Virus record (IMG/VR): IMGVR_UViG_3300030450_002944
Coordinates: 1 to 64,000 of that record
DNA length: 64,000 bases
Origin: a virus
Strand: one strand, 5' to 3'
The stretch's first letter is position 1. Each line of letters begins with the position of its first letter. The notes under the pieces are model-generated. The model did no database searches, was not told the DNA's origin, and saw nothing but the letters and a program-made list of their open reading frames with translations. Made by a program: the position numbers and the translations under genes. Below, piece after piece: positions 2,833 through 27,430 of this stretch.

Positions 2833-4200
2833 ATGGCAACAAATCCATCATTATCTGAGTACGTTGCTCAGTCTCAAAGAGGTTTGTATTCTTCAGTATT
2901 CGGACCTGAATACTTACAGAAACAGACTTACTTTACAGTGGACACTGCTACAGGTATTTTTAATACTACCTATGGTAGAAAAGTTTGGCATTCATTAAAC
3001 AACCAAACTCGTTTCTTCAATGCTGTCCCAAGAACTGTTTGGGGTAACACAGCTGGTTGGAGGATAAGAACAGACAGAGGTTCAGGACGATCAAGACCTG
3101 TAACTGAAACTGGTTCACTTCCTACAGTTGACGTTTCTAACATTGAAAGCATTTCTAGTTTACCTAGAATTGTTTCAACTACTTTTGGTGCTTCAGTGAA
3201 GTCAGTCTTTACTGCACAGCTAGAAGGTGGTGTTGGTGATGTGTTAGCATTGGAAAACGAAAATGCACAACTTGACCACGTTAAAGAAATTAACGAAGAA
3301 CTAATGGCGGGATCTGGATACGTTGTATCTGCAGGTTCCTCAACTACTGGTACTGTACCAGCATCAGTAGCTAAAAACATAAAAATTGGAGACTCAGTTG
3401 CATACTGGGATACTTCTGCAAATGACTACATTGACTCATCTGGACTAGCAGTTTCAGCAGTAAACACATCTACGGGTGCTATTACTCACGCTACTGCATC
3501 AGCTACTATTGCTGACGGTGACGGTATGATCGTTGTAAAAAGAGCAGGACTAACTTCAATTGACGACATCGTTCAAGCTGACGGAGCTGTAGTAGGTGGG
3601 TCTTACGACTCTAACTCAAACTTCGCCGCAAACGGTGGTGTTAATGCTTATGACTTAACATTCGGAGCAAGGGCTGCAGGAAACTGGAACGCCGCTGCTA
3701 CAGTTAAGGATAACAACGGTGTAGGAAGAGACCTTTCTCTAAACCTACTTGATGACTGTATTCAGACAGTAAGAACTAATGGTGGAGAACCTAAACTAAT
3801 CGTTATGGGTCATGACCAATACTTCAAACTAGAAAGATTACTACAATCACAACAGAGATACTTAGGACAGGAAGAGTACCAAGTTGGTGTGGGTTCTGAA
3901 AGAACCTTCCCCGGAACTCGAACTGGACTAGTTCTTGCAACTTACCAAGGTATTCCAATCTTGCCAGATGCAGACACTCCAAAGGGTGTTAGCACAGCTG
4001 ACGCAGTATTGGGTTCAAACGTATATGTTTTGGACACAGACTATCTTGAAATAGCTGTGGCACAACCAACACAGTATATAGAAAACAGAGACTACTTTGC
4101 AGCTAACGCTCTAGTAGTAAGAGGATTACTATACACTATGGCAGAAATGCGATGTCACAACTTCTTCACACAAGCTAAGATTACAGACTTAAACGCGTAA
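2833..4200 (+). CDS. major capsid protein (HK97 fold)
   Basis: 455 aa; E-loop-like ETGSLP, TYQGIPILPD and C-terminal AKITDL; strong codon bias; follows the scaffold and precedes a hairpin. Confidence 0.85.
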   Translation: MATNPSLSEYVAQSQRGLYSSVFGPEYLQKQTYFTVDTATGIFNTTYGRKVWHSLNNQTRFFNAVPRTVWGNTAGWRIRTDRGSGRSRPVTETGSLPTVDVSNIESISSLPRIVSTTFGASVKSVFTAQLEGGVGDVLALENENAQLDHVKEINEELMAGSGYVVSAGSSTTGTVPASVAKNIKIGDSVAYWDTSANDYIDSSGLAVSAVNTSTGAITHATASATIADGDGMIVVKRAGLTSIDDIVQADGAVVGGSYDSNSNFAANGGVNAYDLTFGARAAGNWNAAATVKDNNGVGRDLSLNLLDDCIQTVRTNGGEPKLIVMGHDQYFKLERLLQSQQRYLGQEEYQVGVGSERTFPGTRTGLVLATYQGIPILPDADTPKGVSTADAVLGSNVYVLDTDYLEIAVAQPTQYIENRDYFAANALVVRGLLYTMAEMRCHNFFTQAKITDLNA

Positions 4201-21593: not shown

Positions 21594-21755
21594 CCTAAAG
21601 GAGTTATATGATATATCAGCAGCCACCACCACAGGAGAGGAAATAGGTATATATAAGGAATGGAAAAGGAGAGGAAATGGAGAAGGAAAGGGGTGGGAAA
21701 TGGAAAGGAAGGAAGGGGTCAAATGTCGCATAACTCCCCATGTGGTAGGGGGTAC

Positions 21756-22235
21756 TTAAAAGCACTCCCCTGATTGTTGCAATTCAAATATACTAGGTCC
21801 ACGATCTCTATGACGTATTAAGCTCTTATAGGCTTCTTGCAATCCCCATTCATAATAGAACGATTGACCAAATGACCTTTTGCACCACACAGTTAAACCT
21901 AGCATATCGTCAATTATAATTTCTCCCACTTCTCCGAGCCAATGTGCCAAATGATCAGAGATAAGAAAATATTGCATTACTTCTCCCTGTTTCCATTCAA
22001 TAAGTGCTTCTTTAAACTCTGGCTCTTCCATGTCTGGTAGGTTTTCAGGGTCATATCCCTGTCTAAAATCTTCTATATCTTCTGATGTTATAGCGTTTTC
22101 GGTTGCTATATATAAACTCTCGTAACTGTCGTCTTGCTCAAAGAACCTTTCGGCTACTTCGTTTACAAGATATAGTACGTTCTTATCACACCATTTCTTA
22201 AAGTCTTTATCTTCTGCTAATTTGTCGCTATTCAC
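21756..22235 (-). CDS. conserved phage early protein
   Basis: EVMQYFLISDHLAHWL...GE...GLTVW...GQ family pattern; two tandem promoters upstream. Confidence 0.7.
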   Translation of the reverse strand: MNSDKLAEDKDFKKWCDKNVLYLVNEVAERFFEQDDSYESLYIATENAITSEDIEDFRQGYDPENLPDMEEPEFKEALIEWKQGEVMQYFLISDHLAHWLGEVGEIIIDDMLGLTVWCKRSFGQSFYYEWGLQEAYKSLIRHRDRGPSIFELQQSGECF

Positions 22236-22498
22236 TTTTTACTCCTTTATTAGTTTTTACTTATATATCAATAATAGCATATATAGGGGGGGTAGGTCAA
22301 CCCCTGATATATCCTATAACTCCACCTACTATTATTATATCATATAGGGAAGGGGTCTGTCAAGGGAAAAGGGAAGGAAGGGAAAAGGGAAGGAAGGGGA
22401 TAGGGGGACTGGAGTTATGCGATTATGGGTAGTGGCTCAAAGAGAGAGCCACCACACAATTACGCCAACCACTATTAAGATTTCCAATCAATCCCCTT

Positions 22499-22753
22499 TT
22501 ACCACATAGAGTCAAATGCTTTAACCATGTTAGCCTGTACTTCATACCTAGATGCGTCTACCTGAACGTCTTGACCATCAATTATTACATAATCAATATC
22601 ATGAGCATAGATACTACCAATTTCTGTAGCATAGCCATACACTTTAGCCATTCTGATATTACCTTTTTTGTTGTCCATCATCTCAAACTTCCAACCATTT
22701 TTTTGGTATCCGACTGTCCCTTTTTTTATGTCATTAGGTTCAATAGTTTTCAT
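22499..22753 (-). CDS. conserved small phage early protein
   Basis: NDIKKG...MMDNKKGNIR...EIGSIYAHDI motif. Confidence 0.7.
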   Translation of the reverse strand: MKTIEPNDIKKGTVGYQKNGWKFEMMDNKKGNIRMAKVYGYATEIGSIYAHDIDYVIIDGQDVQVDASRYEVQANMVKAFDSMW

Positions 22754-22808
22754 AGTTCCTTTTTGCTAGTTTTTTCTTTATGTAATAAGTATATCATATT
22801 TGATCACT

Positions 22809-22973
22809 CTATGTCAACTCAATGTTTACAATTTCTTTGTCTGTTAATTTAATATTGTGTTGCTCATAAAAGTTATCTTTTACATTTTGGATAAATTCTT
22901 TTTTGGTTTCTCCATAATTATTTATCGCAAATGATAATTCTATTTCACAGAACCATTCTTTTTCTTCACTCAT
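22809..22973 (-). CDS. small hypothetical protein (54 aa, not in ORF track)
   Basis: AAGGAG SD and own promoter; MSEEKEWFCEIELSF... Confidence 0.6.
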   Translation of the reverse strand: MSEEKEWFCEIELSFAINNYGETKKEFIQNVKDNFYEQHNIKLTDKEIVNIELT

Positions 22974-23054
22974 TTTCGTACTCCTTTATTTAAGTATAGC
23001 ATATTTGATCATTCTATGTCAATAGGGATATATCATATAACTCCAAAAAAAATA

Positions 23055-23371
23055 AATTTAACTAAGCGTGGCGAAGGTGTCAGATTGAATGAAACTCACT
23101 TTCAAACTTAGACTTACGATATCATGATATGATCGTGCTACATCAGGCTACAACTTCGGCTTTCTATCCTAGGCTAGTGGCGGAAGTGATACATCTGGCT
23201 CAACGTCAGGGAACAGAGGGATCTGCAAGATACTCTATTTCTATTCGTTTATCTGAACTTGTACTAAAAGTTCGTTAACAATTAAGTACAACTGATAGTT
23301 TGACAATAACCTTCAAAAGTTTCTGTACAGGTTGCGAACCTATGAGCCTACTTAACCACGCTTATTAAATT
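23055..23371 (-). ncRNA. candidate structured RNA 4 (about 315 nt)
   Basis: No ORF; 16-bp closing stem 23055-23071/23356-23371; long-range GGCTCA/TGAGCC; several hairpins; U-run after the stem on the minus strand. Confidence 0.7.
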
Positions 23372-23376
23372 GTTAA

Positions 23377-23485
23377 ACAAGATTGATGATCGGTTGTTAT
23401 AGACCGAATTTAATCTGTCCACATTCCCTACTTCGTTGTATTGGTAAAATGTTATTCACATTCATCGTTACTTCCTCAACCTTGT
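23377..23485 (-). ncRNA. candidate structured RNA 5 (about 110 nt), co-transcribed upstream of RNA 4
   Basis: Starts at the predicted TSS; ACAAGGUUGA/UCAAUCUUGU stem includes a G-U pair valid only on the minus strand. Confidence 0.65.
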
Positions 23486-23616
23486 AATATAAGTATAGCA
23501 TATTAAAGAGTGGTAATGCAATACCTTGATATATCATATAACTCCTCTTAAAAAAAGAGGGCAGGTGGGGGAAGGGGAAAAATGAAAAAACCCCAAACCC
23601 CTCTTGTACCTACCTA

Positions 23617-23853
23617 TTACATTTCCTCAGCCATTGCCCAAAGGATAGGCTCAACTTCACTAGATATCTGTAAATGGAAGTCGCAACACTTTAACCTGTC
23701 GTTCATTTGATCTTTGGAAAAGATTAGAATATCCTTTATGGAAAAGGCTTTCCTATCTTTACAATCAAACCATTGTCGCCAATACCCTTTATCAGAGTCC
23801 ACTTCATAGTGAACATTCTCGTTTCTATATTTAAAAGTTCCTTTAGCTTTCAT
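23617..23853 (-). CDS. early hypothetical protein
   Basis: SD and downstream G/C hairpin terminator (23551-23612). Confidence 0.6.
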   Translation of the reverse strand: MKAKGTFKYRNENVHYEVDSDKGYWRQWFDCKDRKAFSIKDILIFSKDQMNDRLKCCDFHLQISSEVEPILWAMAEEM

Positions 23854-23854
23854 C

Positions 23855-24046
23855 TTAACCTCTATTCATTTCTATATATTTTTCATTTAGTTCTGTTCTT
23901 ATTACATCGCAATCATCAGAACACACAACATTATTTCCATAACATTCTGTATGATCTTTTTGATAGTTTTTCCACTCTAAAATTTCATCATCTGTTAGAG
24001 TGAAAGACTTAGGGTGTTTATGTGAGTTGCTAATCCAAGATATCAT
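23855..24046 (-). CDS. early hypothetical protein
   Basis: Promoter 24076-24105 and AAGGA SD. Confidence 0.6.
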   Translation of the reverse strand: MISWISNSHKHPKSFTLTDDEILEWKNYQKDHTECYGNNVVCSDDCDVIRTELNEKYIEMNRG

Positions 24047-24092
24047 TTTATTCCTTTACTTGTTTCTATACTTATATTATAGCATATTTAAT

Positions 24093-24191
24093 GTAGGCTT
24101 GTCAAGTGTGTCTTGTTTAGATTTACATATAACGACTTGCAAGAGCTTTCAGGATCAGGGAATACTTACTCAACCCCACTTGACTACCTAC
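24093..24191 (-). ncRNA. candidate structured RNA 6 (about 100 nt)
   Basis: Starts at the predicted TSS of promoter 24199-24228; GUAGG-UA-GUCAAGUG pairs with CACUUGAC-AAG-CCUAC; no ORF. Confidence 0.55.
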
Positions 24192-24250
24192 TAAGTATAT
24201 AATAACATATATGAAGTAGTGAAGTCAATACTGGATATATCATATAACTC

Positions 24251-24309
24251 CCATAAAGAATGTGTCCCATAAAGAATGTGTCCAGTAAAGAATGTGTCCA
24301 GTAAAGAAT
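24251..24309. repeat. 16-bp tandem repeat x3.7 (C(CA/AG)TAAAGAATGTGTC), iteron-like
   Basis: Units start at 24251, 24267, 24283 and 24299. Confidence 0.9.
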
Positions 24310-24379
24310 ACGAGGATTTTTTTCACAAAAAACTTTTCTCCCAAGTCAATGGGCTAGGTGGGCTAGATTTTTAAATCCT

Positions 24380-24517
24380 CTATTGGATGTCGTCTGAAAT
24401 CTTCAGATCAGGAGAGAGGTCATTCCAGTTAAGGATTTCCTCTACTTCTTTATCGGCAGACTCATCATTCCTACCGACACTCATTAGGATTTCATCTATT
24501 AGTTCTCTTAGAGTCAT
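24380..24517 (-). CDS. small acidic protein (45 aa, not in ORF track)
   Basis: GGAGGT SD; MTLRELIDEILMSVGRND... Confidence 0.6.
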   Translation of the reverse strand: MTLRELIDEILMSVGRNDESADKEVEEILNWNDLSPDLKISDDIQ

Positions 24518-24631
24518 AATAGACCTCCACTTTTTTTGGTTTTGTTTTATCGACCTAATATAAGTATAACATATATTCTTTTTACGTCAAACCCCTACCC
24601 CCCATTGATATATCATATAACTCCAAAAAAT

Positions 24632-24672
24632 GAGAGTATAGAAAGAAAAAATGTAAAACTTCCTATACTCTC
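24632..24672 (-). terminator. terminator abutting an 18-bp box
   Basis: GAGAGTATAG...CTATACTCTC with a minus-strand U-run. Confidence 0.7.
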
Positions 24673-24738
24673 TTAATTGTTAATGTTCTTCACATTTAGG
24701 GCAAATAATAGTTGAGCCATTTCTTATACAATCGCAAC

Positions 24739-24966
24739 TCATAAGGGTAATTTTCCAGACTCTTTTTTCTGTTCCCACGTTGCCGACTCTATAGCACCTC
24801 TGAAAATCTGTTCATTAAAGTTTGGGTTATCATCTGCAAATATTTTGCATAATTCTTGGTATAGTATATCAGGGTCTATATATTGAAAACTGCTTGTCGC
24901 AGAGTCAATAAATTTTATACTGTTTTTCCACACGTCCACAAATTTTATGTAATCTTTTTTAGTCAT
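24739..24966 (-). CDS. conserved small phage early protein
   Basis: MTKKDYIK...F.DDNPNF...F family pattern. Confidence 0.7.
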   Translation of the reverse strand: MTKKDYIKFVDVWKNSIKFIDSATSSFQYIDPDILYQELCKIFADDNPNFNEQIFRGAIESATWEQKKESGKLPL

Positions 24967-25069
24967 CTTTTTTTCCTTTTTATTAGTTGATACATTAAGT
25001 ATAGCACATTAAAGATTATTAATGCAATACCCCCACCCCTATTGATATATCCTATAACTCCAGTTGAAA

Positions 25070-25375
25070 TTAAATGAAATCAACTGAATTAGGTTCTTGT
25101 CTAGTTATTAGAACTGAATCTTGTTCAAATTTAGTTTTATATTTTAGGGCAACTTTATTAACCACGTTGATATAATTAATATTATTTTTTTCATGAAGGA
25201 TAGATACAACTTTAGTTTTCTCTTTAGTTCCCTTCCAATAACCTGTAATTTCTGATACTGAAAAACCTTCAACTTCATTAGCAAGTTCAGTATCTAGAAA
25301 ACTATTAAATTGTTTATCTGATACAACTGACTTATTTTTTATATCAGTTCCAAAATATATTAATGTGTTTATCAT
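25070..25375 (-). CDS. DUF3574-like protein, candidate SAM lyase (T3 SAMase-like fold)
   Basis: YFG...VSDKQF..FLD...GFSV....GYWKG..EKTKV...YK..FEQDSVL. Confidence 0.6.
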   Translation of the reverse strand: MINTLIYFGTDIKNKSVVSDKQFNSFLDTELANEVEGFSVSEITGYWKGTKEKTKVVSILHEKNNINYINVVNKVALKYKTKFEQDSVLITRQEPNSVDFI

Positions 25376-25379
25376 TTTA

Positions 25380-25559
25380 TTACCATACCTTCCGTTCTAG
25401 AGTTTGCTTTATTCTTAGTTCATTAATCTTAGCTTTAGTTAATGGTTTAGGTTTAGATCCATTGCCCTTAACAACTGTTATACATTTTCCATTTTTTCCA
25501 ATGGGTACAATCAGTCTTGACTTACTTCTTTTAACTTGTCTTTTACTTGGTATATTCAT
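25380..25559 (-). CDS. small basic protein (59 aa, not in ORF track)
   Basis: MNIPSKRQVKRSKSRL...; follows promoter 25592-25621 and an SD. Confidence 0.55.
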   Translation of the reverse strand: MNIPSKRQVKRSKSRLIVPIGKNGKCITVVKGNGSKPKPLTKAKINELRIKQTLERKVW

Positions 25560-25683
25560 TTTTTTAATCCTTCTTTTTAGTTACTATAATTATTCTATCA
25601 TTTTATTTACTACCATGTCAACCCCTGATATATCATATAACTCCCCCGAAAAATAATAAAAATCGGGGGGAGAGAGTAATTAA

Positions 25684-25911
25684 TTAATCGTCAATGTTTG
25701 GTTGTTCCATTCTTGCGATATGGTTATCCACAATGTACCCTGAATATATTTCATCAGAGAGAATGAAAATCTGTTTCCAGAATAACCCTGATTGAGTATC
25801 AAGAAAATCTTCATCTTCTTTAACACCTGATTTAATAATCGCTAATGCTAAATCGTTGTATCCCTGTGCTATTGCTTGTTCTTTATCTAATCCATTATAA
25901 TCTGTAGCCAT
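25684..25911 (-). CDS. early hypothetical protein
   Basis: Own promoter, AAGGAG SD and terminator 25641-25672. Confidence 0.65.
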   Translation of the reverse strand: MATDYNGLDKEQAIAQGYNDLALAIIKSGVKEDEDFLDTQSGLFWKQIFILSDEIYSGYIVDNHIARMEQPNIDD

Positions 25912-26019
25912 TTTTTAAATCTCCTTTGATTTAATTTATTTATTTATTTAACCTATAATTATTGTCTCATGGATTTGATTTTTTTACAACCCCCATGATA
26001 TATCCTATAACTCCTCTGC

Positions 26020-26244
26020 TTATTCGTACACCTCCCCTAATAAGTCGCCGTCTGCTTCTTGAGGTGTATCAAAATCTACAACCTCATAATTTTCTATGGC
26101 GTGTTTCTGTACTGTAGGTATGCCCTGATCCTCGCAAGCCTGCAACCTTTTTAAAGGCGTTTTGTAGCCGTCATCATCTGCCTGATACGCAGACTCCCAG
26201 TCCCAGTTCTCAGCCCAAAATTTTAAGTTCTCTAAGTTATCCAT
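26020..26244 (-). CDS. small acidic early protein
   Basis: Own promoter and AAGGAG SD. Confidence 0.65.
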   Translation of the reverse strand: MDNLENLKFWAENWDWESAYQADDDGYKTPLKRLQACEDQGIPTVQKHAIENYEVVDFDTPQEADGDLLGEVYE

Positions 26245-26380
26245 TTTTTCTCCTTAACTAAATTTAACTATACCTATAGTATATCACATATTCAAAACTT
26301 GTCAACCCTGTGCCACTCGGCTCAACTAGGGATATATCACATAACTCCACTTCAGCCGAAAAAAAACTGAAGTGAGTATA

Positions 26381-26524
26381 TTAATCGTTCTGAAAATATT
26401 CAATCATAAGTTTAAAGTGTTCCCTATCTAGTTTTTCAACTGGGACATGTTGCAATAATTCCATTAACATATTAACAATAGTATTTAATTTTATATCTAT
26501 TCGTTCTAAGTCTAATTTATCCAT
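26381..26524 (-). CDS. small helical protein (47 aa, not in ORF track)
   Basis: AAGGAG SD; MDKLDLERIDIKLNTIVNML... Confidence 0.6.
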   Translation of the reverse strand: MDKLDLERIDIKLNTIVNMLMELLQHVPVEKLDREHFKLMIEYFQND

Positions 26525-26623
26525 TTTATTATTTCTCCTTTAGTTGTTTATTGTTTTAATTTAATTTTTTATTTATTTTTTATTTCTCCCTTCTACTTAA
26601 TATTACGTGTAATAAAGGGTAAA

Positions 26624-26656
26624 AAACGTCAGAGAAACATCAGAAAAACGTCAGAG
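26624..26656 (-). promoter_or_regulatory. three 11-bp direct repeats (AAACRTCAGAR) in place of a -35 box
   Basis: AAACGTCAGAG-AAACATCAGAA-AAACGTCAGAG upstream of 26381..26524. Confidence 0.6.
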
Positions 26657-26716
26657 TTTTTTATATTCAAAAAACAAACTGAAGTAAGTATATTAAGATT
26701 ATGTATAATAAAATTT

Positions 26717-26947
26717 TCATTTTAAATCTCCTATAATAATTTGAAAATCCATATTCCCAGAGTTCTCATCACCTCCCACAATAGTGATGAAATCCTTTTG
26801 AGAAGGATCATCAATATCAAAATAGTGTGACTCCACCCAGTAGCAGTAACCACACATAACCACTTCATCACCATCTACATCAACCACCAATCCCCAAGAT
26901 GCTATTTGGTTTATTATTAAGTTGCAGAAGTTACATTCTTTATTCAT
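26717..26947 (-). CDS. small zinc-finger protein
   Basis: CNFC...CGYC; AAGGAG SD. Confidence 0.6.
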   Translation of the reverse strand: MNKECNFCNLIINQIASWGLVVDVDGDEVVMCGYCYWVESHYFDIDDPSQKDFITIVGGDENSGNMDFQIIIGDLK

Positions 26948-27124
26948 TTTTTTAAATCTCCTTTATTTGTTTTTTGGGCATAGTATCCCGTATTTATAAT
27001 ATTAGCACATTTGGGGTCAAAAGGAGTTATATGATATATCCCGTACCACTCCCATTTATTTACCTCAGCCGTAAACGAACTGGAGTAAATAAATTAAAAT
27101 GATATATAATAAAATTTTCATCAG

Positions 27125-27325
27125 TTACGCCTTTCTATCTACAATTGTTGCTGAATATTTTCTACTCATTAAAAATAATTTAGAACCATTAGGGCTAGTT
27201 ATTTCCAAATCTCCAAAATCATCATAATCATCTTTATCAACTGACTTTTCTATCGCTTCTTTTTTTGATTTAGCCACAACCGTTTTGTAAGCAATCTGGG
27301 TTTCTTTGATTAAGTATTCTTTCAT
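27125..27325 (-). CDS. small early protein
   Basis: V.AKSKKEAIEK motif; own promoter. Confidence 0.65.
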   Translation of the reverse strand: MKEYLIKETQIAYKTVVAKSKKEAIEKSVDKDDYDDFGDLEITSPNGSKLFLMSRKYSATIVDRKA

Positions 27326-27430
27326 TTTTTTCTCCTTTTGTTATTTAACCTTATATAGATATTTTACAATACCACCCCCCTTATTGCAACCCCTTTGGAG
27401 TTATATGATATATCCTTTGTATTTTTATTA

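Follow-up and report, generated by a model that had tools for sequence, protein, structure and literature searches.

A probable gene for a conserved, structured RNA in the early cassette array of an uncultured marine phage

The window analysed here, meaning the whole stretch of DNA under study, comprises the first 64 kb of an 81,307-bp IMG/VR virus record that is ~99% complete, and its GC content is ~34% (33.9%). The phage genome codes for an HK97-type major head protein, a maturation protease, a tail tube protein and a DnaB-type helicase. No close cultured relative of the phage was found, either at the DNA level (blastn against cultured phage DNA) or at the protein level, and IMG/VR contigs include 441 relatives of the capsid gene. 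Among cultured viruses, the haloarchaeal tailed viruses HCTV-1 and HVTV-1 and a Methanofastidiosa virus have the proteins closest to the major head protein (window positions 2833-4200, plus strand), with ~27-32% identity in the C-terminal third. An archaeal host was judged unlikely on account of the canonical -35/extended -10 promoters, the strong SD sites and the DnaB-type helicase.

Positions 23046-23485 of the minus strand hold a self-contained transcription unit of ~430 nt (about 410-440). Read along that strand, the unit and its borders are arranged in the following order:

23545-23528, minus strand: upstream copy of an 18-nt box (GGAGTTATATGATATATC), one of 12 copies in an array, each preceding a promoter
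23521-23492, minus strand: sigma70-type promoter, with -35 TTGCAT (23521-23516; TTGACA in relatives), an 18-nt spacer ending in TG-n, and -10 TATACT (23497-23492)
about 23485, minus strand: start of the ~430-nt RNA (predicted at ~23483-23485)
23465-23442, minus strand: lineage-specific 24-nt insertion, absent from 14 of 14 other homologues, which supplies the ATG of a 22-codon ORF
23056-23046, minus strand: U-tract directly after the 3' strand of helix P1, the probable transcript end as predicted from sequence
23044-23027, minus strand: downstream box copy, which starts the next cassette (promoter and 54-aa ORF)

The promoter hexamers and the TGn motif are kept in all 15 of the 15 homologues, and the 5' stem of the RNA begins at the predicted +1. 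In every homologue, 6-8 consecutive U follow P1 at a distance of 0-8 nt, ahead of the next box. The first-pass annotation had described the GC content as visibly above that of the flanks. An excess does exist, but it is modest: 37.6% in the locus against 30-35% in the flanks and 33.9% in the window as a whole. The window holds no second copy of the RNA.

The 18-nt box is pseudo-palindromic and occurs 12 times within 21600-27414, against 0.16 copies expected. Most copies lie after a terminator-like hairpin or a T-run and before a near-consensus sigma70 promoter (TTGACA, 18 nt ending in TGn, TATACT), an SD site and a small ORF. The earlier proposal that such boxes bound the RNA locus on each side is correct as to their presence at 23528-23545 and 23027-23044, but these are two of the 12 copies in the array and not specific to the locus. 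Elsewhere, seven copies were found in a related 82-kb genome and none in four more distant capsid relatives.

On the minus strand of the window the order is p78, the RNA, p54, p84 and p159, while the 16 related loci have p84 (inverted), the RNA, p75a or p59, and p159. The gene downstream of the RNA therefore varies by genome between p54, p75a and p59, and every unit carries its own box and promoter. These features bear on the possibility that the RNA is a cis-acting leader, such as a riboswitch, attenuator or processing signal, for the gene that follows. Such a role would agree with the position of the RNA upstream of a small same-strand ORF in the window, and with an SD-like GAGGAAG motif in its 5' part that is sequestered in a stem. 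However, between the RNA and the next ORF lie a U-tract, a new box and a full promoter, the downstream gene is not the same among relatives, and no riboswitch or leader family matches. Given these separate boxes and promoters and the differing downstream neighbours, we regard the RNA as a separate cassette, and consider a leader function exceedingly unlikely.

The order and orientation of the cassettes are reshuffled between close relatives, with an inversion of p84 and a rearrangement of p59, p75a and p78. This suggests that the boxes or promoters may also be recombination joints, besides being regulatory sites. In T4-type phages, 'PeSL' early cassettes are promoter-early and stem-loop modules that shuffle small early genes. 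The array resembles them in that its units are bounded by a repeated regulatory element and a strong early promoter and vary in order and orientation among close relatives. Unlike in the T4-type cassettes, the repeated element here is the 18-nt pseudo-palindromic box, and the cargo is an RNA rather than a protein.

The 84-aa protein p84 (22499-22753, minus strand) adjoins the RNA in 17 of 17 loci. Its family of small phage proteins is widespread, with 58 database relatives and 63 IMG/VR loci, and has a near-invariant MDNKKGNIRM...E(I/M)GSIYA motif. The AlphaFold model, a confident one (pLDDT 88.6), is a small beta-barrel with a C-terminal helix, and the best fold matches are the KOW domains of Spt5 and NusG, whose Z values of 7.2-5.8 are in the generic range; the predicted fold belongs with the generic small barrels of KOW/Tudor/SH3 type (Z 7.2, rmsd 2.2 A over 56 aligned residues). 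We considered p84 as a dedicated partner of the RNA and rejected it, as the family occurs in 63 other viral loci that have neither the RNA nor sizeable ORF-free neighbours. The adjacency, a matter of gene position, is treated here as synteny. Among the early proteins scanned, none was recognised as a reverse transcriptase, as IscB/TnpB-like or as the product of another RNA-partner gene. A 101-aa protein of the early cassettes (25070-25375, minus strand) matches DUF3574 (E 3.6e-15) and, below the cut-off, the S-adenosylmethionine lyase family (E 2.7e-05), which makes it a candidate anti-restriction SAM lyase.

To find homologues we proceeded from p84, which led to two related contigs, to pattern scans of IMG/VR and of a metagenome collection. 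This recovered 15 distinct sequences of the RNA, all of them from marine metagenomes (e.g. TARA, Ga0098xxx). From box to box, the unit of the window is ~76% identical over 537 nt to those of the first two related contigs. The sequences fall into three lineages, namely the window, an 'L003' group and an 'L002' group, with 76-87% identity between groups. Pattern scans of IMG/VR with three different conserved blocks returned the same three relatives only, and the RNA is absent from 20 longer contigs of capsid-related phages. A scan of a bacterial and archaeal genome collection yielded no homologue, only two chance matches in MAGs of 51-56% GC. Literature searches returned no description of this RNA.

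The variation between the lineages is not that of a coding sequence. No reading frame is open across lineages, the indels between them measure 1, 2, 5, 6 and 7 nt, and of the 125 variable columns 49, 36 and 40 fall in the three codon phases, so that no 3-nt periodicity is seen. The sole combination of an SD motif with an ATG belongs to the 22-codon frame at 23465-23397, where the SD-like motif lies 7 nt before the start codon. This spacing is the one feature noted in favour of the unit being an mRNA for one or more micro-proteins, but the ATG itself stands in the 24-nt insertion that all other homologues lack. Given the absence of a cross-lineage frame, the frame-breaking indels, the phase-even variation and the dependence of the ORF on the insertion, we conclude that the unit is non-coding; the probability that it serves as a micro-protein mRNA is close to negligible.

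A structural model of 77 pairs in 12 helices was obtained with RNAalifold and an exhaustive helix scan, and was scored on our alignment A3. As controls we used models in which the 3' partners were slid by 1-3 columns, together with column shuffles (n = 30). Conserved pairing in homologues had been set beforehand as the test of the structure, and 98.5% of the cells form standard pairs in the model, compared with 28-43% in the slid controls. Nine pairs show changes on both sides against 0-2 in the slid controls, and the covariation score is 0.140 against 0.02-0.05. The consensus (alifold) folding energy of -58.7 kcal/mol compares with -37.9 +/- 5.7 for the column shuffles, and the structure conservation index is 0.63 against 0.41. 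The MFE z-scores of single sequences are ordinary (-1.6, -0.5 and -0.3), no better than for shuffled sequence. On the promoter-sense strand, substitutions that are compensatory or compatible with wobble pairing maintain at least six helices. Independent compensatory events are few, as all covariation comes from only three deep lineages. The model contains many G-U pairs, which on the opposite strand would be A-C mismatches; this indicates that the structure belongs to the promoter-sense strand.

The first-pass annotation had proposed a transcript of two domains, and this layout is present and kept in relatives. Its elements are as follows:

23485-23379, minus strand: 5' domain, with a 12-bp closing stem (23473-23485 with 23379-23389)
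23378-23057, minus strand: 3' domain, closed by helix P1
23378-23371 with 23064-23057, minus strand: outer part of P1, an 8-bp outer helix in relatives
23362-23356 with 23071-23065, minus strand: inner GC-rich core of P1, 7 bp (GGCGUGG/CCACGCC), 100% paired
23348-23345, minus strand: GGCU, candidate partner of AGCC at 23200-23197, invariant in 15 of 15 sequences, with no covariation
23343-23327, minus strand: hairpin A (AGGUUCGCAACCU), 5-bp stem and 7-nt loop N-U-C-G-C-A-A
23315-23309, minus strand: 5' strand of P2 (UGAAGGU), pairing with 23078-23072
23272-23256, minus strand: hairpin C (AACUU/AAGUU), closing pair AU (4 sequences), GU (6) or GC (5)
23204-23135, minus strand: long irregular arm D, flanked by twin ~19-nt direct repeats and formed in every homologue
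23140-23109, minus strand: hairpin E (UAGC-ACGAU / AUCGU-aag-GCUA), with a variable 11-nt loop
23107-23079, minus strand: hairpin F (GUUUGAAAGUGA ... CAUUCAAUCUGAC), 97% paired, with one GU->GC change
23078-23072, minus strand: 3' strand of P2 (ACCUUCG), adjoining the 3' strand of P1

Within the 5' domain, a hairpin (23418-23423 with 23398-23403) is accompanied by two conserved single-stranded ACAAC(C)GA blocks. The two helices of the domain, helices 1 and 2, are 100% and 96.5% paired, with four one-sided, wobble-compatible changes between GU and GC or AU in the closing stem. In two homologues (L046 and L050) the inner hairpin has changed from GGA/UCU to GAAUU/AAUUU with pairing kept.

The closing helix of the 3' domain had been described as 16 bp long. 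In the window it does have 16 bp, with one bulge, and in relatives it consists of the 7-bp core and the 8-bp outer helix. One compensatory exchange between AU and GC occurs in its core, at pair 169-479, which is AU in the window but GC in the other 14 sequences. Hairpin A and hairpin C, both proposed earlier, hold up in the comparison. Three of the five pairs of hairpin A covary, changing on both sides (AUAGG/CCUGU, UUAGG/CCUAA and UAAAG/CUUUG), and the last six bases of its loop are invariant. The GAACUU/AAGUUC pairing of hairpin C is maintained through the AU, GU and GC forms of its closing pair. Hairpin E, the ACGAU/AUCGU element, is present in the window and conserved at 95-97% pairing, but it displays no covariation and has four uncompensated single changes, two of them in ACGAU/AUCGU itself.

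Two long-range interactions had been proposed, with one crossing the other. The pairing of GAAGG-UUAU-UGUCA with UGACA-CCUUC survives in its first half only: GAAGG/CCUUC is part of P2, whereas UGUCA/UGACA is found in the window alone, its UGUCA strand lying in a window-specific insertion or variable patch. P2 is the best-supported long-range helix, with 7 bp that are 100% paired and two pairs, 217-471 and 219-469, that change on both sides in different lineages; the other lineages have UAAGGGU/ACCCUUG and UAAAGGU/ACCUUUG. It nests inside P1 and probably stacks on it. The GGCUCA/UGAGCC helix is present in the window and its GGCU/AGCC part is invariant, but the fifth and sixth pairs break in relatives with no compensation. 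The pseudoknot claimed from these two pairings is not established, since P2 nests within the closing helix and crosses only the invariant 4-bp GGCU/AGCC, which shows no covariation; a pseudoknot would exist only if GGCU/AGCC forms.

The apical and middle stems of arm D are rebuilt in each lineage and sub-lineage (ACCAU/AUGGU, AUCAU/AUGAU and CUGUU/AACAG; UUCC/GGAA, UUUG/CAAA and UUCUC/GAGAA), and three of the four pairs of helix 9 change on both sides. The arm is capped by a 9-nt loop with the invariant palindrome CCUAGG (23168-23173). The twin repeats lie at 23186-23204 and 23135-23154, and their CAG/CUG cores pair at the base of the arm. In the L002 lineage the same A-to-U change is seen at corresponding positions in both repeats (CCAGAUG to CCAGUUG and CCUGAUG to CCUGUUG). 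No pairing partner that would explain this concerted change was found; gene conversion or a shared ligand are possible causes. At 23273-23286 (minus strand) the window has UUGUUAAC with the palindrome GUUAAC, and all relatives have UCAUGAU within the palindrome AUCAUGAU. Self-complementarity was kept there despite the change, in what amounts to one evolutionary event that may be due to chance.

Contigs from 18 runs recorded as RNA, belonging to 14 marine metatranscriptome studies, contain the sequence; such contigs reveal neither the strand nor the ends nor the level of a transcript, and DNA can be present in RNA libraries. Seven of the 18 runs hold at least half of the sampled words, and the top share, 0.80, was reached in a run of 37 M letters. 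The predicted transcript makes up ~0.82 of the library query, and we infer that the top share fits coverage of the transcript alone.

An alternative to an RNA gene is that conservation acts on the DNA, whether as a replication origin, as a landing pad for a regulator or as what is left of a decayed gene and retained through linkage. In its favour, the locus has long invariant blocks, twin direct repeats and the palindromes CCTAGG and GTTAAC or ATCATGAT, its thermodynamic z-scores are weak, and the alifold energy of the 3' domain is alike on both strands. Against it stand the compensatory changes in several helices, the many G-U pairs that fit the promoter-sense strand only, the dedicated promoter that places the 5' stem at +1, and the occurrence of the sequence in the 18 RNA libraries. 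We give a function at the DNA level very little credence. The locus is very probably a genuine structured non-coding RNA gene.

No known family accounts for the RNA. Rfam 15 (4227 models) gave no matches over the whole window at the gathering threshold and none in 22950-23600 at E<=10; in the three relatives it gave only noise at E<=10, none of it inside the RNA on its own strand, and on the rest of the genome nothing. Thus down to E<=10 no match was obtained to the Rfam models of RNase P, tmRNA, group I and II introns, GOLLD, ROOL, OLE, HEARO, raiA, IMES, 6S, pRNA or self-cleaving ribozymes. ARAGORN detected no tRNA or tmRNA in the window or the rest of the 81-kb genome. We rejected a tmRNA, whose two ends form a tRNA-like domain, on the ARAGORN result and the absence of a conserved ORF that could serve as a tag frame, and a group I intron, which would be inserted in a gene between exons, on the absence of an Rfam match and the nature of the unit, a free-standing cassette with its own promoter and variable neighbours. 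RNase P RNA, defined by a P4 pseudoknot core with conserved CR-I to CR-V, was set aside as well, with no match to the bacterial or archaeal models at E<=10. GAGGAAG and ACAGAAAC resemble CR motifs of RNase P, with the wrong order and spacing and no model support; hairpin A similarly resembles an anticodon arm (5-bp stem, 7-nt loop, U at position 2, A at position 6), again with no model support. The central proposal of the first-pass annotation, a discrete, promoter-driven non-coding RNA of ~430 nt that is conserved, structured in two domains and without a match in Rfam, is borne out by these results. Sequence comparison indicates that it forms a new, narrowly distributed family of structured non-coding RNA.

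The complexity of the locus had also been placed in the range of ribozymes. This is an analogy only: no sign of catalysis was seen and the folding energy is no better than that of shuffled sequence. A ribozyme, self-cleaving or otherwise catalytic, would be in keeping with the size, the multi-helix build, the possible pseudoknot and the invariant unpaired blocks, all of which are typical of large functional RNAs. But no Rfam ribozyme family matches even at E<=10, the unit lies outside any context of flanking exons or mobile elements, and no sign of processing was seen. Catalysis appears very unlikely.

Taken as a whole, the findings are best explained, we believe with reasonable confidence, by a stand-alone gene for a conserved structured non-coding RNA. 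The RNA would be transcribed early in infection from a strong promoter for host RNA polymerase in the early cassette array, and would accumulate. Its base-paired 5' and 3' ends would stabilise and protect it. Its action would be in trans: as a scaffold or decoy it would bind a protein of the host or the phage, or else associate with itself, and could have a role in host take-over or counter-defence. The invariant unpaired blocks, the twin repeats and the palindromic loop suggest a putative binding surface for a protein, for RNA or for the RNA itself, and contacts would most likely be made by the twin 19-nt repeats and by those long single-stranded blocks that are invariant. That the RNA is a scaffold or decoy in take-over or counter-defence specifically is a guess, which we offer tentatively; it fits the place of the RNA in an array of small early genes that includes the SAM-lyase-like protein, a kind that phages use against restriction. 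With ~430 nt that can be transcribed in vitro and 15 natural variants, the RNA is a tractable candidate for RNA-based host take-over or counter-defence. The early promoter, the 441 capsid relatives and the 14 RNA studies raise the prospect that it may be among the unexplained abundant transcripts of ocean metatranscriptomes.

The same single-stranded blocks might instead pair with host or phage transcripts, the RNA being a base-pairing regulator or sponge. Several invariant unpaired stretches of 10-20 nt and the early promoter are compatible with this. An RNA of ~430 nt with an elaborate conserved fold is, however, far larger than typical base-pairing sRNAs, and no complementarity was seen to the phage's own box or leaders, so that such a regulator is quite unlikely. 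The stand-alone scaffold or decoy RNA that we prefer shares with 6S RNA and the CrcZ/CsrB-type sponges the character of a stable trans-acting RNA with repeated blocks, here the twin 19-nt repeats and the two ACAAC(C)GA blocks, although abundance and trans action are in our case inferred. It differs from them in having no family match and in lacking their defining repeated GGA or A-rich motifs. To our knowledge, structured bacterial and phage RNAs longer than ~300 nt are few, and nearly all of the understood classes are ribozymes, ribonucleoprotein scaffolds or self-assembling particles.

The pRNA of phi29 works as a multimer through loop-loop pairing. It too is a phage-encoded structured RNA from an early promoter, but no Rfam pRNA match was obtained here, the size and fold differ, and our phage is unlike phi29 in its 81-kb genome, its HK97-type capsid protein and its DnaB helicase. 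GOLLD and ROOL resemble the RNA in several respects: they likewise are phage-encoded, several hundred nt long and multi-helix, with a possible pseudoknot, no associated protein and a conserved palindromic hairpin loop (here CCUAGG). On the other hand, their covariance models do not match, they measure ~580-800 nt against ~430 nt, they often adjoin tRNA genes whereas the 81-kb genome has none, and the present RNA stands in an early-promoter cassette array and has a narrow distribution. In GOLLD and ROOL, palindromic hairpin loops form symmetric kissing loops, and ROOL, GOLLD and OLE self-assemble (PMC12286853). By analogy, the RNA might represent a new class of large 'ornate', protein-independent phage RNA that assembles with itself through the CCUAGG loop, or a new ribozyme, in either case made in large amounts; we consider this unlikely. 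If true, a common group of uncultured ocean phages would make such an RNA abundantly. Self-assembly of the ROOL/GOLLD/OLE kind, a formation of homo-oligomers by kissing loops or A-minor bridges, would overlap with the scaffold or decoy reading, and is by the same comparison an improbable, though not a negligible, variant of it. The argument from the palindrome is weak, as several self-complementary hexamers are expected by chance in 430 nt.

The same array has another ORF-free, stem-closed unit, of ~100 nt, at 24093-24200 (minus strand), behind its own box and promoter, with an MFE z-score of -1.4. It is followed by a perfect promoter at 24105-24076. A region near the 5' end of this unit (GGTTGAGTAAGTA) and the 5' domain of the RNA studied here (GGTTGAGGAAGTA) have a 13-nt motif in common. 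Three tandem copies of a ~16-nt unit (GGACACATTCTTTA..) occupy 24252-24300 on the minus strand, immediately upstream of the box at 24234-24251.
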